In this document: in pieces, positions 5,996 through 55,754 of the stretch | Numbering within the stretch: the first letter of the stretch is position 1 | How the letters are laid out: every line of letters begins with the position of its first letter | NCBI GenBank assembly: GCA_963718665.1 | Contig: OY970359.1 | Span: 608,001-672,000, forward strand | Source: an uncultured Phycisphaerales bacterium | GTDB lineage: Bacteria > Planctomycetota > Phycisphaerae > Sedimentisphaerales > Anaerobacaceae | Reading direction: 5' to 3' | Length of the DNA: 64,000 bases | Notes under the pieces: model-generated | Told to the model about the DNA's origin: nothing | Database searches by the model: none | The model's input: only the letters and a program-made list of their open reading frames with translations | Made by a program: the position numbers and the translations under genes

Positions 5996-6290
5996 ATTCC
6001 ACCGCAATAATTTCACATTCCTGACCTGCGATTACCGCGAATTGTTTTTTTGCGAAATATTTTTTATCGTAAGCTTTCCCCCTGTAAGTACTTATGGATA
6101 ACAGGCGCAAAATCATTCGTTTTTTTTCATCAACATTAGCATTGGTCAGTCGCCTTCTGATATAGAAGCAGGAGAACTATGTTTATGACACTACCCAAAG
6201 TTCCAGAAATAGTCGCAATTCGGCAAGTTCAAGTAAACGCCGGTCAACACCCCACAAATGTATACGCAGGATTTATCGGAGGAAACCCCA

Positions 6291-8063: not shown

Positions 8064-8983
8064 TGATAATGCTGCTTACAAAAAAGACCTTATGGACGTA
8101 TATTATTACAAGCATGGTTTTATTTATAACAATACTTGTTAATGATGCCTTCGGTGTTGGTGGTGGTGGTGGCCATCCGCCTTGCCCGGTATGCTATAGC
8201 TGGGGTTATGATGATGTCTTGGATGAGTGGGGATGTTATATTTGGACCTGCGGTAATCAACAGTGTTGCAACGGAACATGTTTTGACCCTAGTACCACGG
8301 GATGCTGTAACGGCGTAACCTATGACCTTAGTTCCCAGGCATGTTGCGGCGGGGCGATTCAGACTAAAGGCGGCTGTATGGACTGCATAAATAACGCATG
8401 GGTATCCACTTGCGATTCCTCCCAGTGCCAGACCTGCGATGGTAGTGGCGATTGTGTATCAAAGTGCGACCCAAGCCAATGCCAGACCTGTGTGAACGGC
8501 AACTGTCCGGTTTGTTATCCGCACAAGTTGAACTGCTGTGATGATTACGATTGCTATCATTGTGTCGAGAAATCCTTCGGCGAAATCTGCCAACCATGTC
8601 TTTGGAAACCCTGGTCTTATGCGGTATTAATGACGTGTCATATGATGCCTGATCCACTATTTGACCCATGTTCGGATGGATGTTCAAATCCTTTTGGTGA
8701 CCATCCAGATGACCCCGCCGATTGTTGCGCTCCGGATAATTCGAGCTTTTATTGGGCTTGTTATAACCACGATTTCTGCTATCAAACCTGTGGAATGCCC
8801 AAAAGCCCTTGTGACAATTACTTTGGCGATGATATGGAAGCTGTATGTTCGAGCACAACTCTCTTATGCCATATTGTATGTGAGGCCCAAAGGGTAATAT
8901 ACTGGACGGCAGTATCACTTTGCGGAGAAGGCCCTTACGAAAGTGACCAATTAGATGCATGTGTTTGTTGTGATTGTTCTTAA
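8063..8983 (+). CDS. Secreted Cys-rich protein copy 1, with C-terminal group XII-like phospholipase A2 domain
   Basis: Complete signal peptide, GVGGGGG, CCNGxxYD repeats, DGC...CYNHDFCYQTCG..K..CD..F..DM..VC. Confidence 0.8.
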   Translation: MIMLLTKKTLWTYIITSMVLFITILVNDAFGVGGGGGHPPCPVCYSWGYDDVLDEWGCYIWTCGNQQCCNGTCFDPSTTGCCNGVTYDLSSQACCGGAIQTKGGCMDCINNAWVSTCDSSQCQTCDGSGDCVSKCDPSQCQTCVNGNCPVCYPHKLNCCDDYDCYHCVEKSFGEICQPCLWKPWSYAVLMTCHMMPDPLFDPCSDGCSNPFGDHPDDPADCCAPDNSSFYWACYNHDFCYQTCGMPKSPCDNYFGDDMEAVCSSTTLLCHIVCEAQRVIYWTAVSLCGEGPYESDQLDACVCCDCS

Positions 8984-9015
8984 CAGGTAAAATGAAATGA
9001 AATAGGAGATTTGAA

Positions 9016-10224
9016 ATGCGATGCTTATCGAAAAATATGGCCGGACTTGTGATTTGTATTATGACGTCAAATTTATACGCAGAAAAATTGACCGTGGTTT
9101 GGGAAAAAGAATTAGGCGATGACAATAATCTCAGTTATGTCGGTCACGAGGCAGTATGCAATAATGGGACTCTACAAGTTGTTGGTTATGCGTTTGATTC
9201 AAAAGCGCGTTCATCCGGAAAGTACTGGTTCTGGCAGATTAATTCTGACGGTAACATCGTATCACATGAAGATTTCCACGCTGTTTCAAATGTACGTCCC
9301 TCGGATATTATTTTCGGCTCATGGCTAACAAAAGGATTGAAAGTTGACCAGAGCGGTATGTACTGTGCGGGCAAGTTCGGCTCAAAGGAGCACTCTTTCG
9401 CTAAGTTCGGAGCAAGCGACAAAAAATTGCTCAAAAAACAAATCCCAATTGACCCCAATAAAAAACCTGGTGATTCGAATCATATGTCAGAAGAATTTGT
9501 TCTCAAAATGGCTGACCTGTCGGATAACAAGTTCCTTTTGGTGGGAAGAGACTCGCAATCTAATGGTTTTGCCGCAAAAGTCGATTCGGATGGTGACGTT
9601 TATTGGTGCAGAGTGTTTGAGAAAAGCAAATTGTCTTTTATTGTCGATGCTGTTGAAGTCGAAAATAGTTTGATATTGTTGGAGTGTTTTTCAGATGGCG
9701 GACCTAAAAATAATTTCTATGAAGGTTTTAATTGTCGCCTTATAAAATGTGATTCCGACGGTAATATTCTTTATGAAAAGTCCTTTATCGGAAGCGGCGC
9801 ATTTCCAAACAAATACCCGGAATTGCACAAAACCGATTCAAACAGTTTCTCAGTCGGTTACGACAAACAGTGCGATTTGACCAGAATAGAATATTGTGTG
9901 GTCAAATATGATGATAAGCTAAATCTGTTGTCTGAAAAAACAATCATCGATAAGGAAACCAAAACACCTGTTTATATACATATATTGCCGGTTTCATCTG
10001 GAGGGTTTATTACTGCTTATAATGATACTTTGGGCAAAATTACCGTTAGCAAATATTCGGGTTCAGGAGATTTATCGACCTCTTTGACTTTGGATAATAT
10101 TGTTGTAATCGATGATTTCCGAATTGTCGGTTCAGGCAATAAGTGCTTTATTATCGCATTGTCAATGCCCGCAAGTACCGATAACCGTGTGAAGACGAAA
10201 ATAGCTGCTTTGACTATTGAATAA
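9016..10224 (+). CDS. Exported putative beta-propeller protein (copy A)
   Basis: Signal peptide; repeated K/Q-x-D/N-SDGN..W/Y blade-like motifs; AGGAG RBS. Confidence 0.65.
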   Translation: MRCLSKNMAGLVICIMTSNLYAEKLTVVWEKELGDDNNLSYVGHEAVCNNGTLQVVGYAFDSKARSSGKYWFWQINSDGNIVSHEDFHAVSNVRPSDIIFGSWLTKGLKVDQSGMYCAGKFGSKEHSFAKFGASDKKLLKKQIPIDPNKKPGDSNHMSEEFVLKMADLSDNKFLLVGRDSQSNGFAAKVDSDGDVYWCRVFEKSKLSFIVDAVEVENSLILLECFSDGGPKNNFYEGFNCRLIKCDSDGNILYEKSFIGSGAFPNKYPELHKTDSNSFSVGYDKQCDLTRIEYCVVKYDDKLNLLSEKTIIDKETKTPVYIHILPVSSGGFITAYNDTLGKITVSKYSGSGDLSTSLTLDNIVVIDDFRIVGSGNKCFIIALSMPASTDNRVKTKIAALTIE

Positions 10225-10681
10225 GAAAGTGAAACGTATGGGTAAGCATTTTCTGGCAGTCTTGTATTCTGTATTGTTGTTATTACTATGTGTCAGTGGA
10301 TGTTATGTGGCAGGCGGAAGGGGCGGAGGTGGTATTACGCATTATAGTCCACTAAGTAGTGTGGATTGCGGCAAACCATGGGTAATTTCAGTCGGCTATT
10401 CTCTTGCGATGGTTGACCGGAAAGAAAAACCCAGCAAGCTTATAGAAAGATTTAAGGCCGGTGTGGTTCATATTCATTATTCCTCAGATAATAATTTTAT
10501 CGACGTTCCTATGGTTTTTGAAAGCGTGAATCCTGAAACTGGCAAATTGAAAATGAAGGCAGACATGAAACCAATCCCCTGTGATTCCAATATTGAATAT
10601 GTAGGTTACCTTATAGATTTCATGTTCGACAATCACTATAAAAAGTCAAAATATCATATTGTCCCCGTCACCAAAAAATAA
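10217..10681 (+). CDS. Small lipoprotein (copy A), candidate cognate immunity/partner protein
   Basis: Lipobox VSGC followed by a Gly-rich linker; homologous to 20327-20782. Confidence 0.65.
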   Translation: MNKKVKRMGKHFLAVLYSVLLLLLCVSGCYVAGGRGGGGITHYSPLSSVDCGKPWVISVGYSLAMVDRKEKPSKLIERFKAGVVHIHYSSDNNFIDVPMVFESVNPETGKLKMKADMKPIPCDSNIEYVGYLIDFMFDNHYKKSKYHIVPVTKK

Positions 10682-10714
10682 TTTGTCTCATTTGATTCCG
10701 GCAGGATATAAAAA

Positions 10715-11860
10715 ATGAAAAGAATGGTGTTATTTTGTTTTATAATCTCATACATTTTATGTGGTTGCAGCTACAATAATAAAACGGAAGATAAAGAATA
10801 TATTCGGCGGTATGGAATGATGGTTGGTTATGTTCCCGGGCCGTTTTTCCAATATGGCCAAACAAAACTGGCCGAATCTCGGCATTTCGACCTTGGTAAT
10901 ATTCCTAACGAAGTTCGCAAAATAAAAGCTGTTGTTCCATTTTCTAATCCCGGCAGAGAGCCGTTAGTTATCGAAAAAGTTAACAGTCCCTGCCCCTGCT
11001 TTTCCGGCTGGGATGGTGATAAAGAGGTCACGCCTGATCAAAATGGCGTGATAAATATTTATTTTGATAAGGACAAAATAGAATCCGGCCATGTAAGTCG
11101 TTTTGTGCGCATAAATACAAACGACCCTGCCAATAGCGAAGTAAAAATACTTTTCGACCTCAACGTTATTCGTAGTCCGGAGGAAGAAGACATTCTTTCG
11201 CTGCGAGATGAAATCCAGAGGATAAAAAGCGAATTACAGTCCCTTCGTAAGGAAATCCGGCAACTGGCCCCTGCACGGAATACTGGCAGTAAGAGGGAAT
11301 CTGTCCCTTCAAATAAGTTGGATACGAATGTTTATGATGTTAATATTGGTTCATCTCCGACCCTCGGACCTGACAATGCCCCTGTCACAATTGTGGAATT
11401 TTTCGACTTTCAGTGCCCTTTCTGTGCGAAGGAATATCCAAAGATTAAGCAAATTATGGCTGAATACCCCGGCAAAATACGGGTTGTTTTTAAGCATTTT
11501 CCGCTGAATTTTCACAAGCAGGCCTTCGCCGTCCATGCGGTAACGGAATTTGCTCTTCGCCAAAAAGGGCCGGATGCTTTTTGGAAATTGCATGATATGA
11601 TTATGGCCGACCCCGAAAAGATAGATACCGCGACTTTACGAACATACGCACAAAAAATCGGATTGGATATAACCGAATTGGACAAACTATGGGCGGATGA
11701 GAAATCAATAGCGGAATTACTAAAGGCGGACAAAGAACTGGCGGAAAAATGCAACGTCAACAGCACGCCCACAATATTTATCAACGGCAGGAAACTTGCT
11801 GACCGTTCTTTGGATGGCTATCGCAGCCGAATTAAGGAAACGCTGAGCCAGGCCAAATGA
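10715..11860 (+). CDS. Lipoprotein with DUF1573-like Ig domain, coiled coil and DsbA-family thioredoxin domain (copy A)
   Basis: Lipobox LCGC; F.N.G.EPL.I..V.SPCPC; GPDNAPVTIVEFFDFQCPFC; STPT cis-Pro loop. Confidence 0.85.
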   Translation: MKRMVLFCFIISYILCGCSYNNKTEDKEYIRRYGMMVGYVPGPFFQYGQTKLAESRHFDLGNIPNEVRKIKAVVPFSNPGREPLVIEKVNSPCPCFSGWDGDKEVTPDQNGVINIYFDKDKIESGHVSRFVRINTNDPANSEVKILFDLNVIRSPEEEDILSLRDEIQRIKSELQSLRKEIRQLAPARNTGSKRESVPSNKLDTNVYDVNIGSSPTLGPDNAPVTIVEFFDFQCPFCAKEYPKIKQIMAEYPGKIRVVFKHFPLNFHKQAFAVHAVTEFALRQKGPDAFWKLHDMIMADPEKIDTATLRTYAQKIGLDITELDKLWADEKSIAELLKADKELAEKCNVNSTPTIFINGRKLADRSLDGYRSRIKETLSQAK

Positions 11861-11862
11861 TA

Positions 11863-11942
11863 GATTTTGAATACTCCTGCAGGGCACAGGCAGCCATCGG
11901 CTGTTTTACGGGCTAATTATCGTTATGGTTTTGCTCTTAACA
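11863..11942 (+). repeat. Cassette junction repeat J1
   Basis: GATTTTGAA..CCTG-N7-CAGG.. followed by the invariant 47-mer ATCGGCTGTTTTACGGGCTAATTATCGTTATGGTTTTGCTCTTAACA. Confidence 0.9.
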
Positions 11943-12794
11943 GCGACTGTTTATGATGCCTGTGGTGTTGGTGGTGGTGGCCATCCGCCTTGCCCGATAT
12001 GCTATAGCTGGGGTTATGATGATGTCTTGGATGAGTGGGGATGTTATATTTGGACCTGCGGTAAGCAACAGTGTTGCAACGGAACATGTTATGACCCTAG
12101 TACCACGGGATGCTGTAACGGCGTAACCTATGACCTTAGTTCCCAGGCATGTTGCGGCGGGGCGATTCAGACTAAAGGCGGCTGTATGGACTGCATAAAT
12201 AACGCATGGGTATCCACTTGCGATTCCTCCCAGTGCCAGACCTGCGTAGGCGGCCAATGCAAGGTTTGCGGCGGCGACGCAAACCAGGCCTGCTGTAACG
12301 GCACATGCTACGACATTAGCACCCAGGGCTGCTGTTATGGAGAATTGTACAGTTTTAATGACTGTAAGTATTGCGACGACGAAGCCGAAGCCCCGTTATC
12401 CACTTGTGACCCAAGCCAGTGCGAGACCTGCGATGGCAATGGCAGTTGTGTGGTTTGCGGCAACGACCCAAATCAATTCTGCTGTAACGGCGAATGCTAC
12501 GAGAACGACGATGACGATTCTGAAATGCTACTACAAACCGGCCGGTTAACCTTCAACCAAGGCAAATGGCAGGAGTCTATTTCCTATTTTGAAAGAGCGA
12601 TGACCAAATTTCCTGCCGGCAGTAAACCGCCCGATGCCCTCTATGCACTGGCGAGGATGTATGAAGAAACAGGGGATATATCTAAGGCAATGGATACCTA
12701 CGGGCAATTGCTCACTTTATTGGAAGACGGAAGCCCGGTAATTCAAAAGGTAAAAACGCGTATTATATCGTTCCAGGAAGAATCCGGAAATTAG
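11925..12794 (+). CDS. Cys-rich protein copy 2 (5'-truncated signal peptide) with C-terminal TPR pair
   Basis: Same constant N-terminus; C-terminus LLQTGRLTFNQGKWQES..DALYALARMYEETGD is TPR-like; no SD before ATG. Confidence 0.7.
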   Translation: MVLLLTATVYDACGVGGGGHPPCPICYSWGYDDVLDEWGCYIWTCGKQQCCNGTCYDPSTTGCCNGVTYDLSSQACCGGAIQTKGGCMDCINNAWVSTCDSSQCQTCVGGQCKVCGGDANQACCNGTCYDISTQGCCYGELYSFNDCKYCDDEAEAPLSTCDPSQCETCDGNGSCVVCGNDPNQFCCNGECYENDDDDSEMLLQTGRLTFNQGKWQESISYFERAMTKFPAGSKPPDALYALARMYEETGDISKAMDTYGQLLTLLEDGSPVIQKVKTRIISFQEESGN

Positions 12795-12809
12795 AAAGGA
12801 GATAAGTCA

Positions 12810-13151
12810 ATGGAACTTTTGAAGCGTATGAATTATGAGATTGTTTTTATTATAGCGACAACCATTGTTGCGATATGTACGGCGCTTCCTGCTTGCACGA
12901 TACGCGGAGAAAGAACTTTTGGAGGTGACAATACTGGCAAACGTTGCACACAGAATGTTTCACCTAATCCGAAATGCGCAACCAGACCTGGTGGAGAACC
13001 TTGCCCTCTTATACATACTCAGTGTAAACTCTCATGCACTGGTTCTTCAACTTGTACTGTTTGTTCAGATGCATCTGATGCATGTCGTCCCTGTAGGTTA
13101 GACCTTGTCCACTGTATAAATCAGCCCAACGAGGATTGTTATAGTGAGTAA
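12810..13151 (+). CDS. Small secreted Cys-rich peptide precursor with possible double-glycine site
   Basis: AAGGAG RBS, hydrophobic leader, ERTFGG then a Cys-rich core. Confidence 0.65.
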   Translation: MELLKRMNYEIVFIIATTIVAICTALPACTIRGERTFGGDNTGKRCTQNVSPNPKCATRPGGEPCPLIHTQCKLSCTGSSTCTVCSDASDACRPCRLDLVHCINQPNEDCYSE

Positions 13152-13195
13152 AAATAATCTGTGCCGAATAAAATGAAGTATATAGGAGCTATTTT

Positions 13196-14257
13196 ATGAT
13201 TAAGAAAAATTATTTATTGACTGCCATAATCGTTATGTCTCTGATGGTGTCTTCTGAGGGTATGGCGCTTACGGCCAGCCAGGTCCTCGATAAGTATAAG
13301 GAGTCGCTTAACTGGACTCGGTCTGTTTCAATGCGTGTTGATGTAAATGTGGACATTCTTGAGTGGCCTGACGCAAATATCCCCCGGTATTATTCAAGGC
13401 CTCAATTTGTTTATCGGCAAGACGGAAATAACTGCGAATGGATTGGAAAGGGCCTTGTATTCGATGCTAACTGGAAATTATTGGATGACAGCAGCTTAAA
13501 CATCCAGGACATCTTTGCAAATGGCCGGTATTTTACCATTTCTCCCACACAACATGGTCCGAACAAGATACCCCGTTATGCGATGATTACGCGCGATTCC
13601 AATCCGTATTATCAGCAGCGATTAGGAGAATTGAGCGCATCAAGCATATTTGGAGGGCCTTTGTTTGGCAAGATGGGTGGAAATAGTAATTATAGTATTG
13701 CCGACCTTCTTGGTAGTGACACAAATCTGCATTTGCGTCCGGATACAGAACCAATAAGAGGTAATTTATGTTATGTTCTTGAGGGCATAACAAAATATGG
13801 TCGCATAACGGCATGGATATCGTCAGACAATGCATACAATGCCCTGAAATGGTCTGTGGAAAAGGGACCAAATGACCTCGTTAATGATAAACCTGCAGGA
13901 ACAATTGTAGAAAAAAGTATTTATGAATTTGACCTCGTTGATTTCCATGAAGTAAACGGGATAATTGTTCCTAAAGATGCCTATTTAACAACAACTGGAA
14001 AATTATCTTTTGATGGTAAAACTATTGCTCGTTATACATATCAGATCTCGCAGGTCTCTTTAAAGCCGGATTTCAAAGCCCTTGGCGCCTTCACGCCAAA
14101 TGTGCCGGAGGGAACACGCGTAAAACTACTGGAAGCGCCGGGGGTTCGATATGTCTGGCGAAACAACAAAGCTGTCCTCGATGTCAATGAGGCAACGTTT
14201 GAAAAAATCGATAAGACAATCGAGCAGTTCAAGCAACAGCAAGATGCGAACCAATAG
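13196..14257 (+). CDS. Exported LolA-like (lipoprotein-sorting fold) protein 1
   Basis: ALTASQVL, E.I.G..CYVLE, WIS, VNGIIVP, F...VPEGTRV motifs. Confidence 0.6.
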   Translation: MIKKNYLLTAIIVMSLMVSSEGMALTASQVLDKYKESLNWTRSVSMRVDVNVDILEWPDANIPRYYSRPQFVYRQDGNNCEWIGKGLVFDANWKLLDDSSLNIQDIFANGRYFTISPTQHGPNKIPRYAMITRDSNPYYQQRLGELSASSIFGGPLFGKMGGNSNYSIADLLGSDTNLHLRPDTEPIRGNLCYVLEGITKYGRITAWISSDNAYNALKWSVEKGPNDLVNDKPAGTIVEKSIYEFDLVDFHEVNGIIVPKDAYLTTTGKLSFDGKTIARYTYQISQVSLKPDFKALGAFTPNVPEGTRVKLLEAPGVRYVWRNNKAVLDVNEATFEKIDKTIEQFKQQQDANQ

Positions 14258-14277
14258 GGAAAGGTTTAAACAACAAG

Positions 14278-15108
14278 GTGAAACCGATATCACTTAAACC
14301 ATTGCTATTTTTGGTTTTTCTGGTCGTTACTCTATGCGGCTTTTGCTTTGATTGCCAAGCAGCAGAACCAAATACTGTTTCCCTCCAGCAGAAATCATCC
14401 GGTGGTTATTGCGGGATTTATTCTTTGTATGGGGCGATGAAATATTTTGGGGTGCATGTTGAACCGAATGAGTTGCTGAAACCCGAATATATCGGCTCGA
14501 TTCAGGGTAGCTCTCTTGCTGAGTTGAAAAAGGCCGCAGAGAAATATGGCTTGTTTGCTATTCCGGTCGCGCGTCTATCTACGAAAGACCTTCGTAAATC
14601 ATCTTTACCCGTAATTATTCACGTCAAATCCTCACCAACCGACAGAAAGTATGACCACTATGAGTTATTTTTAGGTTCAAAGCAGGGACAAGCGTTGATT
14701 TATGACCCTCCGACCCCTATTGAATCGGTGGAGTTTTGGACATTGGCTCCGCGATGGGACGGCAGCGGGTTACTTATATCTAATAAGCCAATAAACCCCA
14801 ATTTTGTTTTTGCATCTTCCCGCTTGCGATTCGTCGGATATACGGGGATTGCAGTATTATTAGTTCTTGCAGCAAGGTGGGGACATAGATATTTGTTTGA
14901 TTATCGCCCAGCGATGTCTCGTAAACAAAAATTTCTATTGAGTATAGGTCAGTGTATGATTCTGGTACTGATTTCGGTTTTTATCGCTATTGTGTATCAT
15001 TCATACAATGATGAGGGATTGCTTTTGCGTAAACAGGCAACTCAAGCTATTCAACTGGCGTATAAATCAAACCATAACAATATACACAAGACAGGCGATA
15101 CCAAATGA
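14278..15108 (+). CDS. Membrane-anchored C39-family cysteine peptidase (no ABC domain)
   Basis: QQ..GGYCGIYSL, GSSLAELKKAA, LPVIIH, HYEL, IYDP (Cys-His-Asp); signal peptide and two C-terminal TMs. Confidence 0.8.
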   Translation: MKPISLKPLLFLVFLVVTLCGFCFDCQAAEPNTVSLQQKSSGGYCGIYSLYGAMKYFGVHVEPNELLKPEYIGSIQGSSLAELKKAAEKYGLFAIPVARLSTKDLRKSSLPVIIHVKSSPTDRKYDHYELFLGSKQGQALIYDPPTPIESVEFWTLAPRWDGSGLLISNKPINPNFVFASSRLRFVGYTGIAVLLVLAARWGHRYLFDYRPAMSRKQKFLLSIGQCMILVLISVFIAIVYHSYNDEGLLLRKQATQAIQLAYKSNHNNIHKTGDTK

Positions 15109-15563
15109 AACGTCAAATTGTTGAAGTTTTTGTGATTTTGGTGCGAATAGCGATTGGCAGTATTTTTATAGCCAGCAGCATACCAAAATTGCGCCAGCCA
15201 TACGATTTTCTGGCCAGCGTTTACAGTTATAAGCTTGTAGGGTTTCAATTCGGCCTCGCGGTGGCAGTGGTTTTGCCCTGGGTTGAACTTTTTGTGGGAA
15301 TCTGTTTGGTGGGGGGTATTTTAGTAACGGGGGCGCTTTTGGCAAGTATTGGATTGTTCACAATGTTCGGTTTCGTTCTGGCGTCTGCTTTATGGCGCGG
15401 CCTCAATATAAGCTGCGGCTGCTTTAATTCTTCTGATACGAACATTATCAGTTACTGGACTTTAGGCCGAGCAATAGGGCTGTTGTTAATATCATTAGCA
15501 ACATGGCTTTTCGCTGTAATTGTCACACGTATATCGAGTGAAAATTTAAACGTTCAAAAATGA
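15105..15563 (+). CDS. MauE/DoxX-family redox-associated membrane protein
   Basis: RIAIGSIF, LPWVELFVG, ISCGCF motif. Confidence 0.85.
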   Translation: MKRQIVEVFVILVRIAIGSIFIASSIPKLRQPYDFLASVYSYKLVGFQFGLAVAVVLPWVELFVGICLVGGILVTGALLASIGLFTMFGFVLASALWRGLNISCGCFNSSDTNIISYWTLGRAIGLLLISLATWLFAVIVTRISSENLNVQK

Positions 15564-15685
15564 CATCACAGAAAAACCACGTTCCGGTTCAAGAAAAACT
15601 CCGTTTTGCTTTATCGCCCTTTCACAAGTAAATAAGTAAAGCGTGGTCAAACGGGCAGCGAACACCCAAAGCTACCTTAGGGCAA

Positions 15686-16108
15686 ATGGATGCCGAGGCC
15701 ACGTTAATTGCCGCTGTCAATTACCATGAGATGGGCAGGTGGACGGACGCTATCAATAATTATCAAAAAGTCCTCGACAACTGGCCTGATTTTGAACACG
15801 CCTGCGGGATACAGGCGGCAATCGGCGGCTGTTACGAAAAGCTTAGAGATAAGGAAGGAGTTCCGAAAGAAGGGGTAAATCCTTTAATAGAGGATGCCTA
15901 CATAGCAATTTTGACTAATTACCCCAACTGTTATGCAATTAAAAATGCGGCATATAAACTTGCCGGGATCATGCTGGAAAAAGGTGATAAGGCCTCTGCT
16001 GCGAAGTATTATAAGAAGTTTCTTGAAACAGCCAGACCTAATGATGACCGTCTTGCACCTGTTAAAGCCAAACTTGCCGAATTGACCGCCGAAGGAGGGA
16101 ACAACTAA
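15686..16108 (+). pseudogene. Duplicated 3' fragment of the TPR gene
   Basis: From about 15748 the sequence is identical by eye to 7703-8063 (offset 8045), including the GAAGGAGGG RBS and the TAATG overlap. Confidence 0.85.
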
Positions 16109-17019
16109 TGATAATGCTGCTTACAAAAAAGACCTTATGGACGTATATTATTACAAGCATGGTTTTATTTATAACAATACTTGTTAATGATGCCTTCGGT
16201 GTTGGTGGTGGTGGTGGCCATCCGCCTTGCCCGATATGCTATAGCTGGGGTTATGATGATGTCTTGGATGAGTGGGGATGTTATATTTGGACCTGCGGTA
16301 ATCAACAGTGTTGCAACGGAACATGTTTTGACCCTAGTACCAAGGGATGCTGTAATGGCGTAACCTATGACCTTAGTTCCCAGGCATGTTGCGGCGGGGC
16401 GATTCAGACTAAAGGCGGCTGTATGGGTTGCGTAAATGATAACTGGGTATCCCTTTGCGACTCCTCCCAGTGCCAGACCTGCGTAGATGGTAACTGCAAA
16501 TCTTGCAATGAAGCAGATCCGAATAAAGATTGCTGTAACGGCGCATGCTATGACCCCGCAACCCAGGGATGCTGTAACGGCGAAATCTATGACCCCAATA
16601 CTGAAAAGTGTTGCTGCAATGGTACACCTCTCCCGAAGTGTAAGTTAACTGATGGAGAGGTTTGTGCAGACCCTTGTGGCCATTATCCCCCATGTAATTG
16701 GAGATGTACTTATATGACGGGTGATAATTGTCTTGGTGTATATTCAAGAGAATACAAAGGATGGACAGAAAAAATATGTAGCGGAGGTTGTCCAGGCGAA
16801 TGCGAGTCCAATGAAAGCGTTTGTTATATACAAACACAATGTCAAACAGTTTGGATGCCTGTAGTGTCTCAGCAATGCGTTGGGCCCTCGCCAGCTGGCG
16901 GATGTAAGTCGCTAAATGAAAATAATTTTGGCGTATGGTGCTTTCACTGTGACGTTATGCCTAATACTCAATGTAGTATAAAAAGACAAAATGATGCCTG
17001 TATAAGTTGTGGAGAATAA
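16108..17019 (+). CDS. Secreted Cys-rich protein copy 3, novel Cys-rich C-terminus
   Basis: Complete signal peptide identical to copy 1; diverges after CDSSQCQTC. Confidence 0.8.
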   Translation: MIMLLTKKTLWTYIITSMVLFITILVNDAFGVGGGGGHPPCPICYSWGYDDVLDEWGCYIWTCGNQQCCNGTCFDPSTKGCCNGVTYDLSSQACCGGAIQTKGGCMGCVNDNWVSLCDSSQCQTCVDGNCKSCNEADPNKDCCNGACYDPATQGCCNGEIYDPNTEKCCCNGTPLPKCKLTDGEVCADPCGHYPPCNWRCTYMTGDNCLGVYSREYKGWTEKICSGGCPGECESNESVCYIQTQCQTVWMPVVSQQCVGPSPAGGCKSLNENNFGVWCFHCDVMPNTQCSIKRQNDACISCGE

Positions 17020-17021
17020 TT

Positions 17022-18131
17022 ATGAAATCTGAAAAAATAATGTTTGTGATTGTCAGTTTATTGGCTTTTACGGCTTTTGTATATGGTGAGCCAAATGATT
17101 TTAAGCCGGTTTCGAGTAATGACGTAAACTACGTTTTGAATATGCTCGCAGCCCATACCCAGGATAATTATGACCGCATTAACACATGGGAGGGGGAAAT
17201 AGAAAATACAGACTATATATGGTTCCACGGAACATCTGCCGAAAGAATTTTTAGGGGGTATATGGATAGCAATGAACAAGCCCCTGATGAAATTAAAGAA
17301 ACAGTAAAGGGCAACAATGGCTTTTTGGTTGATAGCAAGAAGGACAACCTCTTAATTCGTAGCACTCCTGTCGGAAAAATAACTTTATTGGATATTAAAA
17401 CCAATCGTTCATATGAATCAGGTTTGCAAAGAAGTGAAGATGCTGTAATTACAACGCCAGATTATCAGATAAAGTGCGACCCTTACAGATTGAACCGTGT
17501 TTCAAAAGAAACAATACAAAGGATGGGTACCAAAAGTCCTGTCTCAGGTAATATTATGATGGCTATGGGGGAGAATGACCCAAGAATTGTATTAAAAGGC
17601 CGAGGTTTACCTGTCTGGTCTATATTGGAATCTTTGGCCAAAAAAGGGTTAGAGCAGGGAGGTGTTTCCAACAAACTCGAAGAAAGAGTCAATGTCGGTT
17701 TAGTTGATTATCGAATAGAAATACCAGGTGTTGCAGATGGAAATGTTGTGGGATTCCTGAGTATGCTTTTTTCAGGCAATAAAGGTTTTCTTGTAACAGA
17801 ATACGAGACCAGAAACAAAGATGGCAGCCTCCGAGCAAAAGAGATGATAGATTTTACTTTGGTTGATGGTGTCTATTTGCCGGCCCGAATCCATTACACT
17901 TCTTATGAAGATAGTGGAAAAATGATGGAGGATAGGATGCAAATATTCAAAAATATGCGGGTCAATAAAACTATTCCGGAGGATTCTTTTACATATAAAA
18001 ACGCCGGTTTGAAAAATGGTGATTTATTCGACGACAAAATCGAAGGCAAGAAATACAAATACCAGGACGCGAATCTTGTCTCGATTGAAGAGCCAAATAA
18101 GTTGCCAGAGCCGAATAATCCGCCAAAATGA
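17022..18131 (+). CDS. Exported LolA-like protein 2
   Basis: GGAG RBS at 17011; VDGVYLP, VN..IPEDSFT motifs. Confidence 0.6.
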   Translation: MKSEKIMFVIVSLLAFTAFVYGEPNDFKPVSSNDVNYVLNMLAAHTQDNYDRINTWEGEIENTDYIWFHGTSAERIFRGYMDSNEQAPDEIKETVKGNNGFLVDSKKDNLLIRSTPVGKITLLDIKTNRSYESGLQRSEDAVITTPDYQIKCDPYRLNRVSKETIQRMGTKSPVSGNIMMAMGENDPRIVLKGRGLPVWSILESLAKKGLEQGGVSNKLEERVNVGLVDYRIEIPGVADGNVVGFLSMLFSGNKGFLVTEYETRNKDGSLRAKEMIDFTLVDGVYLPARIHYTSYEDSGKMMEDRMQIFKNMRVNKTIPEDSFTYKNAGLKNGDLFDDKIEGKKYKYQDANLVSIEEPNKLPEPNNPPK

Positions 18132-18154
18132 CGGCGGATAAAATAGTTTGTCTC

Positions 18155-18244
18155 CAACTGGCCTGATTTTGAACCCGCCTGCGGAATACAGGTGGCCATC
18201 GGCTGTTTTACGGGCTAATTATCGTTATGGTTTTGCTCTTAACA
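18155..18244 (+). repeat. Cassette junction repeat J3
   Basis: CAACTGGCCTGATTTTGAA (matches TPR gene 7733-7751) plus the invariant 47-mer. Confidence 0.9.
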
Positions 18245-19093
18245 GCGACTGTTAATGATGCCTGTGGTGTTGGTGGTGGTGGCCATCCGCCTTGCCCGGT
18301 ATGCTATAGCTGGGGTTATGATGATGTCTTGGATGAGTGGGGATGTTATATTTGGACCTGCGGTAATCAACAGTGTTGCAACGGAACATGTTTTGACCCT
18401 AGTACCACGGGATGCTGTAACGGCGTAACCTATGACCTTAGTTCCCAGGCATGTTGCGGCGGGGCGATTCAGACTAAAGGCGGCTGTATGGGTTGCGTAA
18501 ATGATAACTGGGTATCCCTTTGCGACTCCTCCCAGTGCCAGACCTGCGGCGGCAATGGCATTTGCGTATCAAAGTGCGACCCAAGCCAATGCCAGACCTG
18601 TGTGAACGGCAACTGTCCGGTTTGTTATCCGCACAAGTTGAACTGCTGTGATGATTACGATTGCTATCATTGTGTCGAGAAATCCTTCGGCGAAATCTGC
18701 CAACCATGTCTTTGGAAACCCTGGTCTTATGCGGTATTAATGACGTGTAACAGAGTCGATGATCCAACATTTAATCCAAAAACAGATGGATGTTCAAATC
18801 CTTTTGGCGACCATCCTAATGACCCAGCCGATTGTTGCGCTCCGGACAATTCGAGCTTTTATTGGGCTTGTTATAACCACGATTTTTGTTATCAGACATG
18901 TGGTGCCGATAAAGGCGGTTGTGACTCTGCCTTTGGCAATGATATGGAAGCTGTTTGTGCAGGCACAAGTCTCTTATGCCATGTTGTATGTGAAGCGCAA
19001 AGAGTGATATATTGGGCGGCAGTTTCACTCTGCGGAGAAGGCCCTTACGAAAGTGACCAATTAGATGCATGTGTTTGTTGTGATTGTTCTTAA
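18227..19093 (+). CDS. Cys-rich protein copy 4 (5'-truncated signal) with PLA2-like domain, allele of copy 1
   Basis: CYNHDFCYQTCGADKGGCD; otherwise largely identical to 8063-8983. Confidence 0.75.
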   Translation: MVLLLTATVNDACGVGGGGHPPCPVCYSWGYDDVLDEWGCYIWTCGNQQCCNGTCFDPSTTGCCNGVTYDLSSQACCGGAIQTKGGCMGCVNDNWVSLCDSSQCQTCGGNGICVSKCDPSQCQTCVNGNCPVCYPHKLNCCDDYDCYHCVEKSFGEICQPCLWKPWSYAVLMTCNRVDDPTFNPKTDGCSNPFGDHPNDPADCCAPDNSSFYWACYNHDFCYQTCGADKGGCDSAFGNDMEAVCAGTSLLCHVVCEAQRVIYWAAVSLCGEGPYESDQLDACVCCDCS

Positions 19094-19125
19094 CAGGTAA
19101 AATGAAATGAAATAGGAGATTTGAA

Positions 19126-20334
19126 ATGCGATGCTTATCGAAAAATATGGCCGGACTCGTGATTTGTATTATGGCATCAAACTTATACGCGGAGAAGTTG
19201 ACCGTGGTTTGGGAAAAAGAATTAGGCGATGACAATAATCTCAGTTATGTCGGTCACGAGGCAGTATGCAATAATGGGACTCTACAAGTTGTTGGTTATG
19301 CGTTTGATTCAAAAACGCGTTCATCCGGAAAGTACTGGTTCTGGCAGATTAATTCTGACGGTAACATCGTATCACATGAAGATTTCCACGCTGTTTCAAA
19401 TGTGCGTCCCTCGGATATTATTTTTGGCTCATGGCTAACAAAAGGATTGAAAGTTGACCAGAGCGGTATGTACTGTGCGGGCAAGTTCGGCTCAAAGGAA
19501 CATTCTTTCGCCAAATTCGGAGCTAACGATAAAAAATTGCTAAAAAAACAAATACCGGCTGACCCGAATAAAAACCCGAGCGACTCAAATGATAAATCAG
19601 AGGAGTTTGTCCTCAAGATGGTTGACCTGTCAGATAACAAGTTTCTTTTGGTAGGAAGAGATGCAAAATCTAATGGTTTTGCCGCAAAAGTCGATTCGGA
19701 TGGTGATGTTTATTGGTGCAGAGTGTTTGAGAAAAGCAAATTGTCTTTTATTGTCGATGCTGTTGAAGTCGAAAATAGTTTGATATTGTTGGAGTGTTTT
19801 TCGGATGGCGGACCTAAAAATAATTTCTATGAAGGTTTTAATTGTCGCCTTATAAAATGTGATTCCGACGGTAATATTCTTTATGAAAAGTCCTTTATCG
19901 GAAGCGGCGCATTTCCAAACAAATACCCGGAATTACACAAAACCGATTCAAACAGCTTCTTAGTCGGTTATGACAAACAGTGCGATTTGACCAAGATAGA
20001 ATATTGTGTGGTCAAATATGATGATAAGCTAAATCTGTTGTCTGAAAAAACAATCATCGATAAGGAAACCAAAACACCTGTTTATATACATATATTGCCG
20101 GTTTCATCTGGAGGGTTTATTACTGCTTATAATGATACTTTGGGCAAAATTACCGTTAGCAAATATTCGGGTTCAGGAGATTTATCGACCTCTTTGACTT
20201 TGGATAATATTGTTGTAATCGATGATTTCCGAATTGCTGGTTCAGACAATAAGTATTTTGTCATCGCATTGTCAATGCCCGCAAGCACCGATAACCGTGT
20301 TAAAACCAAGATAGCCGCCTTGAATATTGAATAA
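19126..20334 (+). CDS. Exported putative beta-propeller protein (copy D)
   Basis: Near-identical to 9016-10224, same length (402 aa). Confidence 0.65.
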   Translation: MRCLSKNMAGLVICIMASNLYAEKLTVVWEKELGDDNNLSYVGHEAVCNNGTLQVVGYAFDSKTRSSGKYWFWQINSDGNIVSHEDFHAVSNVRPSDIIFGSWLTKGLKVDQSGMYCAGKFGSKEHSFAKFGANDKKLLKKQIPADPNKNPSDSNDKSEEFVLKMVDLSDNKFLLVGRDAKSNGFAAKVDSDGDVYWCRVFEKSKLSFIVDAVEVENSLILLECFSDGGPKNNFYEGFNCRLIKCDSDGNILYEKSFIGSGAFPNKYPELHKTDSNSFLVGYDKQCDLTKIEYCVVKYDDKLNLLSEKTIIDKETKTPVYIHILPVSSGGFITAYNDTLGKITVSKYSGSGDLSTSLTLDNIVVIDDFRIAGSDNKYFVIALSMPASTDNRVKTKIAALNIE

Positions 20335-20782
20335 AAAGGGAAAACATACGCGTAAATATTGCTCGGTATCGCTATATTTATTATTGTCTTTGGAACTACT
20401 ATGTATCAGCGGATGTCAAGTCGCAGGCGGTGGTGGCATGTTCTATTGCCCTCCAAACAATATTATTTGCGATAAACCATGGTATATTACAGTGAAATAT
20501 GTGGTTGTTCCGATTGACCCGAAAGAAAGATATGGTAAGCTGACTGAAAGATATAAAGATGTTATGATACATATTCGCAATTCCGTAAATAGTGATTTTG
20601 TCGCCGTGCCTATGGTTGTAGAGAACGCGAATCCAGCAAAGGGCGAAATACAATACATCGCAAATATGAAAGCGATTCCCTGTAACGCCGGTATTACGTA
20701 TGTGGAATATTATATAGATGAAATGTTTAAGGGTGTTTACAATGGAACAAAATCATACAGGGTCCCCGTAAACAAAAACTGA
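20327..20782 (+). CDS. Small lipoprotein (copy D)
   Basis: Lipobox ISGC; divergent homologue of 10217-10681. Confidence 0.65.
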   Translation: MNKKGKHTRKYCSVSLYLLLSLELLCISGCQVAGGGGMFYCPPNNIICDKPWYITVKYVVVPIDPKERYGKLTERYKDVMIHIRNSVNSDFVAVPMVVENANPAKGEIQYIANMKAIPCNAGITYVEYYIDEMFKGVYNGTKSYRVPVNKN

Positions 20783-20814
20783 TTTTTAGTATGTAACCTC
20801 CATGGGAAATCTAA

Positions 20815-21975
20815 ATGAAGAAGGCAGCGTTATTTTGTCTTATAGTAGTGTGTATTTTATGCGGATGCAGGCACAATCAGAATCAGGACGCAGAATATAT
20901 TCAGAGATATGGAATGATGGTTGGTTATGTTCCCGGACCATTTTTTCACTATGGTCAAACCAAACTGGCCGAATCGCGTCATTTTGACCTCGGTGATATT
21001 CCGCATGAAGTTCATAAAATAACAGCTACTATTCCTTTCACCAATCAAGGCAGAGAAACGTTGATTATCAAAAAAGTTGATAGCCCCTGCCCCTGCTTTG
21101 CCGGATGGGATGGCGATAAAGAGCTTGCCCCTCGCCAAAAAGGGGTGATTTACCAAAAGGGAGTGATTAATGTTTACTTCGACAAGGACAAAATAGAATC
21201 CGGACACGTAACCCGTTTTGTGCGTATAAATACAAATGACCCGTCCAATAACGAAATAAAAATATTCTTCGACTTCAATGTTATGCGCAGCCCGGAAGAA
21301 GAAGATATTCGCTCGTTACGAGATGAAGTCCAGAGGATAAAAGGCGAGTTGCAGACCCTTCGTAAGGAGATTCGACAGTTTACTCCCGCAAAAAACGCAA
21401 GCAATAACAGGAGAGCTGCCCCCGCAAACAATCCGGACACGAATGTTTACGACGTTAATATCGGCACATCACCCACCCTCGGTCCGGATAGTGCCCCTGT
21501 TACAATTGTTGAATTTTTTGACTTCCAGTGCCCGTTCTGCACAAAGGAATATCCAAAGATTAAGCAAATTATGGCTGAATACCCCGGCAAAATACGGCTT
21601 GTCTTTAAGCATTTCCCGTTGGATTTTCACAAGCAGGCCTTCGCCGCCAACGCCGTAACGGAATTTGCTCTTCGTCAAAAAGGGCCGGAAGCTTTCTGGG
21701 AGCTTCACGACATGATTTTGGCTGACCCCGAAAAAATCGACGCCGCAACTTTACGAGCATACGCACAAAAACTCGGATTGGATATAACCGAATTGGACAA
21801 ACTCTGGGCGGATGAGAAGGCGATAGTAGAATTACTAAAGGCAGACAAAGAACTGGCAGAAAAATGCAACGTCAACAGCACGCCCACAATATTTATCAAT
21901 GGCAGGAAACTTACTGACCGTTCTCTGGATGGCTATCGCAACAAAATTAAGGAAACGCTGAGCCAGGCCAAATAA
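20815..21975 (+). CDS. DUF1573-like + DsbA-family lipoprotein (copy D)
   Basis: CPC and CPFC motifs; paralogue of 10715-11860. Confidence 0.85.
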   Translation: MKKAALFCLIVVCILCGCRHNQNQDAEYIQRYGMMVGYVPGPFFHYGQTKLAESRHFDLGDIPHEVHKITATIPFTNQGRETLIIKKVDSPCPCFAGWDGDKELAPRQKGVIYQKGVINVYFDKDKIESGHVTRFVRINTNDPSNNEIKIFFDFNVMRSPEEEDIRSLRDEVQRIKGELQTLRKEIRQFTPAKNASNNRRAAPANNPDTNVYDVNIGTSPTLGPDSAPVTIVEFFDFQCPFCTKEYPKIKQIMAEYPGKIRLVFKHFPLDFHKQAFAANAVTEFALRQKGPEAFWELHDMILADPEKIDAATLRAYAQKLGLDITELDKLWADEKAIVELLKADKELAEKCNVNSTPTIFINGRKLTDRSLDGYRNKIKETLSQAK

Positions 21976-21977
21976 TT

Positions 21978-22059
21978 CTGACTTTGAATACGCCTGCGGG
22001 ATAGAGGCAGCTATCGGCTGTTTTACGGGCTAATTATCGTTATGGTTTTGCTCTTAACA
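21978..22059 (+). repeat. Cassette junction repeat J4
   Basis: CTGACTTTGAATACGCCTGCGGGATAGAGGC plus the invariant 47-mer, 2 bp after the upstream stop codon. Confidence 0.9.
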
Positions 22060-22620
22060 GCGACTGTTTATGATGCCTGTGGTGTTGGTGGTGGTGGTCA
22101 TCCGCCTTGCCCGATATGCTATAGCTGGGGTTATGATGATGTCTTGGATGAGTGGGGATGTTATATTTGGACCTGCGGTAATCAACAGTGTTGCAACGGA
22201 ACATGTTTTGACCCTAGTACCAAGGGATGCTGTAACGGCACACTCTATAACCTTAGCACCCAGCAGTGCTGTAGTGACATCTCGCCTTCCTATGTATGTG
22301 GTATTAATCAAGCATGCTGCAACGGGTCCTGCTGTAACCCATACAAGTGCCAGACTTGTTTTAGTGGTGAATGTCAGGTTTTATACATAGTGTGTCCAAG
22401 TGCCGCTGGGGGGTGCCTGGATGGCGGAGCTTGTGGAGTCGGAAATTATCATGAAGAAATTCAGTGGCTAACCATGTATCCTATGGACGAATACCCATGT
22501 CAAGATACACTCTATACATGTACTGTGTGGACACCATTCGTAGATGAAAATTGTATGGTATCTATAGCTGTTTACTGTCCCGAAACGTATTTGGGATGTA
22601 ACCCGGCAATTGGTACTTAG
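22042..22620 (+). CDS. Cys-rich protein copy 5 (5'-truncated signal), novel short C-terminus
   Basis: Constant region up to GCCNG, then unique sequence. Confidence 0.7.
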   Translation: MVLLLTATVYDACGVGGGGHPPCPICYSWGYDDVLDEWGCYIWTCGNQQCCNGTCFDPSTKGCCNGTLYNLSTQQCCSDISPSYVCGINQACCNGSCCNPYKCQTCFSGECQVLYIVCPSAAGGCLDGGACGVGNYHEEIQWLTMYPMDEYPCQDTLYTCTVWTPFVDENCMVSIAVYCPETYLGCNPAIGT

Positions 22621-22630
22621 GAGACAAAAA

Positions 22631-23551
22631 ATGAAATCGTCTTTGGTTTTATGTTCAGTAACAATCATAGTCGGGGCATTATGCCCTTCAACAACATCGG
22701 CTATTACTGCTGATGAGATTATCAACGGATTAGAGCAAAGAGAGCAAAGCATAAAAACTATTCATGGGGAATTTGATGTATGGGCTCAAATAAGAACAAA
22801 TGATGGGAACACCGAAGAAATTGAGAAGCAATACGAATGGACCAAAAATGGGAACACCCAAAAACTAATCACAGAATACAAAATGCTACCAGAAAGGCTC
22901 AAGCCTAAAGAGCAAAATAATATATGCCCTACTTGCCCAAATCCAATGAAAATGCATGTAATGGCTAATAAGGAAATTCGCTTATTTGATGGGCAAACGA
23001 CTCAACAATTTTTACCAGAAAGCAATAGTGCCGCCATTTTCCCAGGAGACCAGATATTTTTTGCAGGTAAAGTGCCTGAAGACTGGTTGATGAAAAGAAT
23101 CAAGCGGAAATCATTGTCGGTTTTTTTAAAACAACAAGATAATTTCTTGAAATATACAGGAGACATTAATTTGGAAGGGCAGCGATGTCATATCCTAGAA
23201 TTTAGCGATCACAATACGTATGATGGCAAACTATATATTGTAGATGGACAGAAACTATTTACGACCAAATTTGAGATAAACATAATAAATCACAATCTTC
23301 CATTCAACACACGAGAAGAGGATATATTCAGCGATTTCAAATCTTACGGTAATATAACTTTGCCATCGAAGGTTACCGTGACTGTTTACGATGTTTATCC
23401 GGAGAAAGAGCAATTATCAATGAAAGAAATTTTCACCGTTAAAAAATTAGAGATTAACGGTCAAATCACTAATTCTGATTTAAGCATGCGACTCCCAGTT
23501 GGTACGCGTGTTCATGATTCCGTAGCGAATAAAGATTTTGTTGTTCATTAG
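22631..23551 (+). CDS. Exported LolA-like protein 3
   Basis: AGGAG RBS; AITADEII, LFDG, LEGQRCHILE, ITLPSK, LPVGTRV.D. Confidence 0.6.
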   Translation: MKSSLVLCSVTIIVGALCPSTTSAITADEIINGLEQREQSIKTIHGEFDVWAQIRTNDGNTEEIEKQYEWTKNGNTQKLITEYKMLPERLKPKEQNNICPTCPNPMKMHVMANKEIRLFDGQTTQQFLPESNSAAIFPGDQIFFAGKVPEDWLMKRIKRKSLSVFLKQQDNFLKYTGDINLEGQRCHILEFSDHNTYDGKLYIVDGQKLFTTKFEINIINHNLPFNTREEDIFSDFKSYGNITLPSKVTVTVYDVYPEKEQLSMKEIFTVKKLEINGQITNSDLSMRLPVGTRVHDSVANKDFVVH

Positions 23552-23571
23552 AATTTTCAAGGTGGTATTAT

Positions 23572-23654
23572 CCTGACTTTGTACCCGCCTGCGGGATACA
23601 GGCGGCCATCGGCTGTTTTACGGGCTAATTATCGTTATGGTTTTGCTCTTAACA
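23572..23654 (+). repeat. Cassette junction repeat J5 (array end)
   Basis: CCGCCTG-CGGGATA-CAGGCGG plus the invariant 47-mer. Confidence 0.9.
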
Positions 23655-23825
23655 ACGATTGTTAACGATACATACGGCCTTGGCCCGTGTTCATCAATGC
23701 CCTGCGGCCAATACGGTTTTGGCTCGTCTGCCGATTTTAAGCCCCTGTTTTACCCGCGAGGCAGGCAAATTTTACCGCCCAACCGATGTGAAAAACACCC
23801 GCTAAAACCCCAAAAAACGCCCTAA
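23637..23825 (+). pseudogene. Remnant sixth Cys-rich precursor start
   Basis: MVLLLTTIVNDTYGLGPC matches the leader, then similarity is lost. Confidence 0.6.
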
Positions 23826-23916
23826 CCCCTAACCTTCTATTAAAAAACACCATATAACCATTATCATATCCCACATAAGCCAGGCCAAAAAATCCGCCAA
23901 ATTGCAAAAAAAATGA

Positions 23917-23945
23917 TTGTTATTACCCGCTTTGACGATTACTAT
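23917..23945 (+). promoter_or_regulatory. Putative sigma70-type promoter of the nusA operon
   Basis: TTGTTA-N17-TACTAT. Confidence 0.45.
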
Positions 23946-24227
23946 ATGTTTTCGTGTGCGAAAAATTACGGCTGCCCCGTGTTCTCGGGGAATGTAGTTA
24001 GGTGTATTCGATGATTTTTGCAGGGTCTGCTTACAGTGCGTATTAGCCGAACAATTGCTCGGTTCGGCGAAGGTTTCGCGCCGATTGTGGCCGGTATGCA
24101 AGGGTTTTTGCTCCAGCGACGGCCTATGAATCGGGTTGTTATACAACATTGGGTTGAACTACGGAGGCACAAGATGTAGCGTCAAACCAACGACAACCTC
24201 GATTTATTGGGCTTGAAGCGTGGATGT

Positions 24228-24254
24228 GGAAACCGGTATGGTTTCCTTTTTTTT
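24228..24254 (+). terminator. Intrinsic terminator/attenuator upstream of nusA
   Basis: GGAAACC-GGTAT-GGTTTCC followed by a T run. Confidence 0.7.
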
Positions 24255-24312
24255 ATTGCTCGTCTCCGCGAAGACGCTGAGTCGTAGCCGGATTGTAAGG
24301 AAGCATAAACAA

Positions 24313-45287: not shown

Positions 45288-45447
45288 AGCAATCTTAAAC
45301 TGTTAACTTTAACATTCTATATTGAAAATTGAATATTGGATATTTCTTCGCCTTCTGCCTTCTAACTTCTCCCTTCTGCCTCCCCCAAATATCCTTTTGA
45401 TGAATCAGGGTGGCCAACAAAAATATTTTATTTTTTCAATATTTTAC

Positions 45448-49313: not shown

Positions 49314-49499
49314 TGACTATCGACTACACGTAGCGGAGCGCAGAGCCCGCTTCGGCAATCATAAATTGCAAATTGATTAATCCGCAATCTACCTTTCCCC
49401 TTCTAACTTCTAAATTTTTGCCATTTACTTTTTGCTTTTTGATTTGAGGTTGAACTGTCCGCTGAACGCTGTACGCTGTCCGCTGTCTTTGGTCTGCGG

Positions 49500-50684: not shown

Positions 50685-51058
50685 TCCGTCGCCTCCCGAC
50701 AACCGCCTGTCTGAATATGGCTCATTATGTTCTCCTCTGTTGCCTTGTCCCCTCCCCGCCAAAGCTCCCCTCATTATACCCTTTTAAATCCCCTTTTCAA
50801 GCGGTTCCCGCCTGTGGCAGGCTTTACTTTGATATTGGGCATTGGATATTCGATATTGGACATTCAATTCAGTCCTCCATCCACCTTAACTCAAAACTAA
50901 ACACTAAAAACCCCTTCTCCCTTCTAACTTCTGCCTTCCCCTTTCTCGATGGCTGAAAAATACTTGCCTTGCCCTGCCGGCAGGGATTATACTTCCCCAA
51001 AGAAAGCGGCTCAAAATAGCGAGATTGAAATAATGTCTGTTTTTGGAGGTCTATCAAA

Positions 51059-55423: not shown

Positions 55424-55754
55424 GGGATTCTTGATTTGAGATTTCGGATTGCGGATTGCGCCTTCGCCGGAAAAACTTTTACATTGGGCGTTGTATATTC
55501 AATATTGGACATTGTTCCGTCCTCTGTCTTCCGTCATCTGTCTTCTGCCTGCCCTGAGCTTGTCGAAGGGCTGCCCGCTGTACGCTGTACGCTACACGCT
55601 GAACGCTGCTTCGCTCTTGACTCTTCGTAGCGCAGCGGAGATTCCCGAGTGCTGCTACCTGGCCATAGAACAGGGAATCCAAGTTGACAATATCCGGCCA
55701 ACATACTAAATTGATGACAAATAATGGTGGGTATTATTGTGATAGGTAGACGAT

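Follow-up and report, generated by a model that had tools for sequence, protein, structure and literature searches.

Repeated junctions in a probable polymorphic-toxin-like array of an uncultured planctomycete are most likely deletion scars, not recombinase sites

The MafB/MafI loci of Neisseria encode a signal-peptide protein with a constant N-terminus and a variable tip, followed directly by a cognate gene and, downstream, by start-less mafB-CT cassettes; a dedicated gene, mafA, lies upstream, strains differ in whether a given tip is a cassette or full-length, and activation of the cassettes by recombination has been argued (PMC4287609). A Salmonella Rhs orphan without initiation and export signals is activated by homologous recombination with the main gene (PMC3967940). 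Polymorphic toxin systems more widely have a toxin-then-immunity order and standalone cassettes, and include a PLA2 tip of the 1kp4 fold and HEAT immunity proteins (PMC3482391). The R64 shufflon has a constant 5' part, exchangeable 3' ends and sfx sites with a fully conserved 7-bp core and a 12-bp right arm, with Rci adjacent (PMC11852207). Each of these papers is drawn on here in part. We describe a gene array at positions 6046-23756 of a 64,000-nucleotide stretch (the window) of contig OY970359.1 from an uncultured Phycisphaerales bacterium (genome G000 below). The array is probably a polymorphic-toxin-like locus with orphan cassettes, which would be activated through a constant 5' coding region by homologous recombination. 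Four repeated junctions in it, which stand in front of spare cassettes, are most likely deletion scars and not recombinase sites. The whole looks like a swap-the-tip toxin/antidote system of uncultured planctomycetes that is as yet undescribed; no account of this layout was found in the literature, although the supplement of PMC3482391, which lay outside the scope of the search, may bear on it.

The array has a GC content of 43%, against 49-50% in the flanks. It opens with a head, in which a TPR gene, a translationally coupled start and a full signal peptide (leader) precede a Cys-rich protein and its partner, and continues into further modules, several of them orphans that begin at a junction:

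6046 to 6257, + strand: upstream region common to this array and a second array of the genome (BLAST)
6258 to 8063, + strand: head TPR gene (called at 601 aa, with 6291 as the probable start), whose stop overlaps the start of the Cys-rich gene
7733 to 7791, + strand: TPR-gene segment NWPDFEHACGIQAAIG, which recurs at the junctions and has inverted 6-bp arms (7754-7772)
8063 to 8983, + strand: head Cys-rich protein 1, with full leader, constant N-terminus and a PLA2-like tip with His-Asp
9016 to 10224, + strand: secreted beta-propeller, cognate partner of the PLA2 tip and candidate immunity protein
10217 to 11860, + strand: gene for a 154-aa protein of no known family and a DUF1573-DsbA gene, which travel with the PLA2 module
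11863 to 11942, + strand: junction 1 (TPR piece, 7-nt common word at 11897-11903, leader block at 11896-11942)
11925 to 15563, + strand: orphan module 2 (TPR-tipped Cys-rich open reading frame, gene for a secreted 113-aa Cys-rich protein, 353-aa gene, C39 peptidase, MauE)
15616 to 15634, + strand: boxA-like motif at a module boundary
15719 to 16108, + strand: TPR-gene 3' fragment, 99-100% identical to the head copy, with ribosome site and full leader retained
16108 to 17019, + strand: Cys-rich protein 3 (full leader, Cys-only tip)
17022 to 18131, + strand: cognate partner of Cys-rich protein 3, LolA-superfamily fold
18118 to 18139, + strand: palindrome with 7-bp arms over the partner stop, also present at cassette ends of relatives
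18155 to 18244, + strand: junction 2; its left part recurs at the end of the second array and of arrays in relatives
18227 to 21975, + strand: orphan module 4, a second PLA2 module (tip, beta-propeller, 151-aa gene, DUF1573-DsbA)
21978 to 22059, + strand: junction 3, without contiguous inverted arms
22042 to 23551, + strand: orphan module 5 (192-aa Cys-rich open reading frame and 313-aa partner)
23572 to 23654, + strand: junction 4, with perfect 7-bp arms at 23585-23605
23637 to 23825, + strand: cassette remnant of 62 codons, without a partner gene
11896-11942, 18198-18244, 22013-22059 and 23608-23654, + strand: the copies of a 47-bp leader block

The four junctions begin at 11863, 18155, 21978 and 23572, each 2-23 nt past the preceding stop, as the original prediction had it. 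Their opening piece resembles an internal part of the TPR gene, again as predicted, at 7733-7791 and also at 15778-15836, with 80-88% identity over 49-59 nt (E 7e-5 to 4e-14 in the 2.6-Mb genome); the longest exact matches to the genome's own TPR gene, and hence this left homology, are short (9, 20, 14, and 21 nt for junctions 1-4). The block that follows is indeed identical in all four and exactly 47 bp long, and translates as LFYGLIIVMVLLLT; the 33 nt preceding it are merely 73-88% alike among the junctions. Two predicted details did not hold. The block represents another leader allele than the full leaders at 8063 and 16108, and although three of the junctions open full cassettes, the fourth opens the remnant. 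In the truncated leaders the hydrophobic core and the cleavage region are kept and the basic N-region is missing, signal peptides being assigned by eye.

A search for the 47-mer in the genome and its relatives, which the original prediction proposed, placed the block in an intact leader. The native full leader with this sequence, MKTQNFKKDIDCRLFCGLIIVMALLLTT, is found in locus L061, and a similar one in genome G002; junction 4 is 94.5% identical to the L061 leader over 55 nt (BLAST), the identity of the block to native leaders being read from BLAST figures and by eye. The join falls on a 7-nt word that is common to the leader and to the TPR alleles of G002 and G008, and that encodes I-G-W in the TPR alleles and C-R-L in the leader allele. 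In L061 the TPR spot and the leader spot lie 321 nt apart, so what was lost at the junctions is the 3' end of the TPR gene together with the ribosome site and leader codons 1-12. We infer that a deletion of ~320 bp between the 7-nt words removed these elements and the start, and that the scar was then copied along with the modules, its leader part being held uniform by gene conversion. The 5' regions of the cassettes are 93-98% alike, and the DsbA genes ~78%. Among 276 genomes of the family, the leader pattern gave 10 matches in seven: the four junctions, the native leader of G002, a remnant in G020, a fusion on G008:C33 and three matches with two mismatches. In the G008:C33 fusion the join has the same position, with a leader like that of G002 behind that genome's own TPR allele (by eye; 16 nt exact to its own allele against 13 to the window's). 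Because it uses G008's own allele, the junction-type deletion appears, on this inspection by eye, to have arisen at least twice. Elsewhere in relatives the truncation points scatter, lying at TPR residues ~468, 482, 548 and ~595, in the middle of the leader and in the mature Cys-rich protein.

The locus represents a family-wide array of a TPR gene, a Cys-rich protein with a constant start and a variable tip, a partner gene and 5'-truncated spares. The second array of the same genome (G000:C1:2227420-2231710) has a different tip and partner behind a promoter, TPR gene and leader that are 99.3% identical to those of the window (6046-8392 versus G000:C1:2227420-2229765, BLAST), and the two TPR proteins are identical. 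The left half of junction 2 forms its end; a tRNA-like reading of that end was rejected, since by eye junction 2 does not fit it. The head-plus-truncated-spares layout recurs in relatives, and heads and orphans have changed places between genomes: module 2, an orphan in the window, stands directly behind the TPR gene, as the head, in G008. Between a GH88 gene and an SH3 gene lies one chromosomal slot whose cassettes differ among G000, G002, G008 and G020. The array in the window probably derives from an array of the second array's chromosomal slot, because its end shares sequence with the intergenic region behind that array: the remnant at 23637-23825 runs into 23714-23756, which is also found there.

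A constant N-terminus with a variable C-terminal domain, an adjacent downstream cognate gene that covaries with the tip, and standalone 5'-truncated cassettes downstream of a full gene are all present, as in polymorphic toxin systems. The covariation was seen across 44 Cys-rich rows from 41 loci, in which the type of tip predicts the type of partner. PLA2 tips go with a beta-propeller (4/4 rows), HExxH tips, assigned by motif only, with a HEAT protein (3/3) and TPR tips with a small Cys protein (2/2); the remaining 35 rows have Cys-only tips, whose partner is of the LolA family in 28, of other families in six and absent in one wrong-strand row. LolA-fold partners were found in 38 of the 276 genomes; this partner family has 615 representatives at E 1e-10. 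For the PLA2 tip and its propeller the predicted-complex score was 0.85 (best control 0.02), a mark attained by 116 of 157 solved pairs and 2 of 215 mismatched pairs. Contacts agreed to at least 78%, and partner pLDDT (predicted local distance difference test) was at least 83. The model thus supports binding of the tip by its partner. In an Atlas search the Cys-rich protein had no usable match, and NCBIfam gave generic TPR and C39 matches only. Module 2 (11925-15563) may be a peptide-maturation unit captured into the array; TPR-C39-MauE groups like it stand alone in G023, G022 and G004.

In layout the locus is closest to MafB/MafI, with a signal-peptide protein of constant N-terminus and variable tip, a cognate gene directly behind, start-less cassettes downstream, tips that are orphans in one genome and full-length in another, and a dedicated upstream gene. 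The likeness is one of layout, with no sequence link seen. Here the upstream gene encodes a 600-aa TPR protein, the stalk consists of Cys-rich repeats, the partners are secreted proteins of 250-440 aa, and spares can have a TPR-leader fusion in front of an almost complete coding region. As in Rhs main/orphan pairs, the orphans would be without initiation and export signals and would recombine with the main gene; unlike those pairs, the locus has no Rhs repeats and no type VI link, and switching is inferred. The gene order, the standalone cassettes, the PLA2 tip and the HEAT partners recall the polymorphic toxins of PMC3482391. In the parts of that paper drawn on, however, Tox-PLA2 has no listed immunity family and HEAT proteins pair with Tox-REase-7 and Ntox34, not with HExxH tips; LolA occurs 0 times in its main text, the supplement being outside the scope. 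If the reading holds, it adds a conflict system for an uncultured planctomycete family, with PLA2/beta-propeller, HExxH tips/HEAT proteins and small disulfide-rich tips/LolA-fold partners as new candidate pairings. The junction would then be less exotic than first supposed, and would show how displaced modules are muted.

The proposal that these modules are orphan cassettes gained support from three sides. The in-frame ATG of the orphans has a weak ribosome site (duplex energy -2.5 kcal/mol, versus -13.5 kcal/mol for the full leader), orphans 2, 4 and 5, three of the four, are exactly identical to the 5' coding region of the head gene over 155, 221 and 108 nt, and relatives have the same layout. 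The head, with its TPR gene, coupled start and full signal peptide, would express one secreted variable-tip Cys-rich protein and the partner, and displaced modules would lie behind the head position. A spare could become the expressed tip by RecA recombination of its 5' coding region, or of its leader alone, with the head gene; a single crossover in this region would set the new tip and its partner behind the full leader. Alternatively, a new tip could be imported from another strain. Neither route would require a dedicated recombinase, and RecA and ComEC are present in the genome. The original prediction had supposed that homology flanks the expression site on either side. The TPR-side arm cannot switch a cassette on, because a crossover there ends the TPR frame a few codons on and loses the start, and so only the downstream arm yields a working gene.

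Read evidence came from contigs of four runs of one study, of which run X1, possibly the source sample, was the best. X1 contigs cross the junctions at 18155 and 23572 and the 15.6-kb boundary. One X1 contig, joining 16150 to 23630 (depth 3.4, 34-nt side), has the start of a full leader, with two single-nucleotide differences, joined to a junction-type tail, in frame by count. Rearranged junctions of the kind foreseen by the original prediction did not appear: among the joins listed for the four runs, at low depth, no contig linked the TPR site to a junction. Contigs drop rare forms, but matches at the TPR site are shorter than 31 nt, and such a join could therefore have appeared in them. A read joint between 16593 and 18125 was set aside as a rearrangement, being accounted for by the second array. 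Separately, a loose read end at 18021 (X1) is an unassembled partner-gene allele, depth 4, that joins the conserved partner 3' end; it is strain-level cassette variation in the sample.

Several points weigh against this account. The contig with the hybrid leader may be merely another strain's allele. The three long orphan reading frames are intact, with omega values of 0.10-0.52 against homologues, indicating purifying selection; this fits recent displacement, and would fit translation as well. An in-frame CTG lies 24 nt before the ATG, with ribosome-site energies of -3.2 to -7.7, which makes low-level translation of the orphans possible. Toxicity and expression of the array products are predictions. 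The PLA2 match of Cys-rich protein 1 falls below the Pfam cut-off (PF09056, E 6e-4; PDB 1faz, E 0.006), most tips have no known toxin domain, and the LolA class is over-sampled because many table rows were fetched with the LolA profile. As to the deletion, the 7-nt word is not the longest common word, others of 6-9 nt existing, so its reuse is only partly explained. Finally, nine of the 13 variant codons of the four TPR pieces have counterparts in a set of 12 other TPR alleles, where 3.1-3.6 would be expected (P 0.0005-0.002, a significance inflated by common ancestry), which suggests that the pieces came from more than one donor allele, as one old scar would not predict.

This last point also bears on an explanation that we regard as unlikely, namely that cassettes are stacked in an integrase-free, time-ordered array, with the TPR-like piece at their ends serving as the arm. 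An incoming cassette would recombine at its front, in the TPR gene or leader, and through its end piece with the TPR site, and so enter at the head; the old cassette would be pushed downstream, and recurrent deletion would then mute its displaced effector. The piece follows the partner stop at five of ten partner ends from the genus, closes arrays, by inspection, in the second locus, G006, G008, G010, G012 and L061, and has a counterpart in a TPR fragment of G002 that starts just before this site. The mixed TPR alleles of the junction pieces and the recurrence of the join in G008 are likewise as expected. Outside the genus, however, the piece is found at none of 23 partner ends, in genera that do have arrays (three rows at contig ends were left out of the count). 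In other species the end pieces mostly score higher against the G000/G002-type TPR gene than against the host's own, so they look inherited, as relics; concerted evolution of end pieces with the own TPR gene was considered and is not seen in most relatives. The exact matches to the own TPR gene are as short as 9-21 nt, and among the joins listed for the low-depth contigs of the four runs, which drop rare forms, none linked the TPR site to a junction. The end piece may thus be a relic, or an arm that stacks new cassettes at the head.

Among relatives, L096 (G006:C7, 8594-12811) has a gene for a 1405-aa carboxypeptidase-regulatory-like-repeat protein between a truncated TPR gene and an end piece, and in L205 (G021:C69) a similar gene end precedes a junction. 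In another genus, L054 and L056 (G034) have a repeated junction of their own after HEAT partners, and several HExxH-tipped orphans.

A fuller form of the stacking proposal, which is rather unlikely, holds that 3' TPR copies stack effector-immunity modules by homologous recombination alone, that deletion at the 7-nt word mutes the effector and that boxA-like sites keep the immunity genes transcribed. If true, the array would be an integrase-free, time-ordered immunity memory in which disulfide-rich tips are neutralised or carried by LolA-fold proteins. A motif like that at 15616, the only one in the window, also lies 204 nt before the 16S gene at G000:C1:1276624, in the rRNA leader; boxA precedes 16S genes in other bacteria (PMC13753749, drawn on in part). 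The motif could reload antitermination across untranslated orphan reading frames. Further intergenic leaders in the family also have the pattern, which was found in 33 of 276 genomes, and G022, G005 and G021 have a longer hairpin followed by the boxA-like motif. At module borders it was noted in L185, L187-L189, L206, L207 and L209, often behind a hairpin.

We hold it improbable that the whole array is one expressed operon in which translation of the cassettes starts at the in-frame CTG or ATG, or reaches them by a -1 slip on a run of T, and gives a shortened but usable signal peptide. The intact orphan frames with omega below 1 and the retained hydrophobic core and cleavage region are compatible with this. 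In three junctions the CTG ribosome-site energies (-5.8 to -7.7) reach into the range seen for ordinary genes here (-5.7 to -9.5), and the leader frame lies at -1 to that of the TPR gene where four T stand in a row. The ribosome site of the ATG is weak, however, the basic N-region is missing, the TPR-frame piece of junction 2 is without a start codon, and junction 4 heads a remnant. In relatives the truncations reach deep into the mature protein, and translation is therefore not a general constraint.

The inverted repeat is not the junction-wide feature it was taken to be: contiguous perfect arms measure 4, 4, 0 and 7 bp at junctions 1-4, and the core sequence varies among them. The TPR copy in the window has 6-bp arms around a 7-nt core, and the genome has 842 sites with arms of at least 6 bp around a 7-nt spacer. 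Among 30 TPR sites compared, perfect 6-bp arms were found in this genome's alone and 5-bp arms in one other; the arms arise because the A-C and Q-A codons produce them. All junction matches are on the + strand (BLAST). The window contains no tyrosine recombinase, as had been stated, and the genome has seven PF00589 matches, six over the cut-off, each more than 100 kb from both arrays. In this genome, 94.6% complete, the best IntI match (TIGR02249) reached 87 bits against a cut-off of 265, a search for serine resolvases found none, and a tblastn search for Y1 transposases gave no match. Paired R boxes of attC type were not seen at junctions or cassette ends, as judged by eye against the consensus and with no attC model used. 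A tyrosine-recombinase site of shufflon or integron type, its enzyme encoded elsewhere in the genome, is therefore highly improbable, and that reading is largely refuted: in its favour are the six recombinase matches and the arms of 6-7 bp that flank 7 nt in the TPR gene and at junction 4, but the arms are broken in 3/4 junctions and 29/30 TPR sites, the copies are all direct, and breakpoints are scattered in relatives. The R64 shufflon is similar in its constant 5' part, exchangeable 3' ends and 7-nt centre; unlike it (PMC11852207), the locus has no adjacent recombinase, conserved core, 12-bp right arm or inverted segments. Elsewhere, a Y1 (IS200-like) transposase gene lies within an array in L044 (G013:C4, 9901-10563).

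Orphan module 4 is 86% identical to module 1 over 4 kb. An Rfam scan of 5900-24300 gave a single match, taken as chance, and promoter and terminator scans gave counts equal to those of shuffles, with no terminator called at any junction. The palindrome at 18118 was considered as a repetitive extragenic palindromic element and rejected, having just two exact-arm copies in the genome. Viral contigs gave 0 matches, and the TPR query matched nothing in a wider genome collection. There the junction pattern had 17 matches, three in planctomycete metagenome-assembled genomes and 14 in unrelated taxa, the latter taken as chance. Beyond the array, the window has short intergenic repeats (families D13, D14 and D16) at 45306-45376, 50826-50938, 55475-55513 and 49455-49499. 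At 55755-57698 are two adjoining genes that look acquired, the first resembling, by eye, a restriction-endonuclease-like protein.

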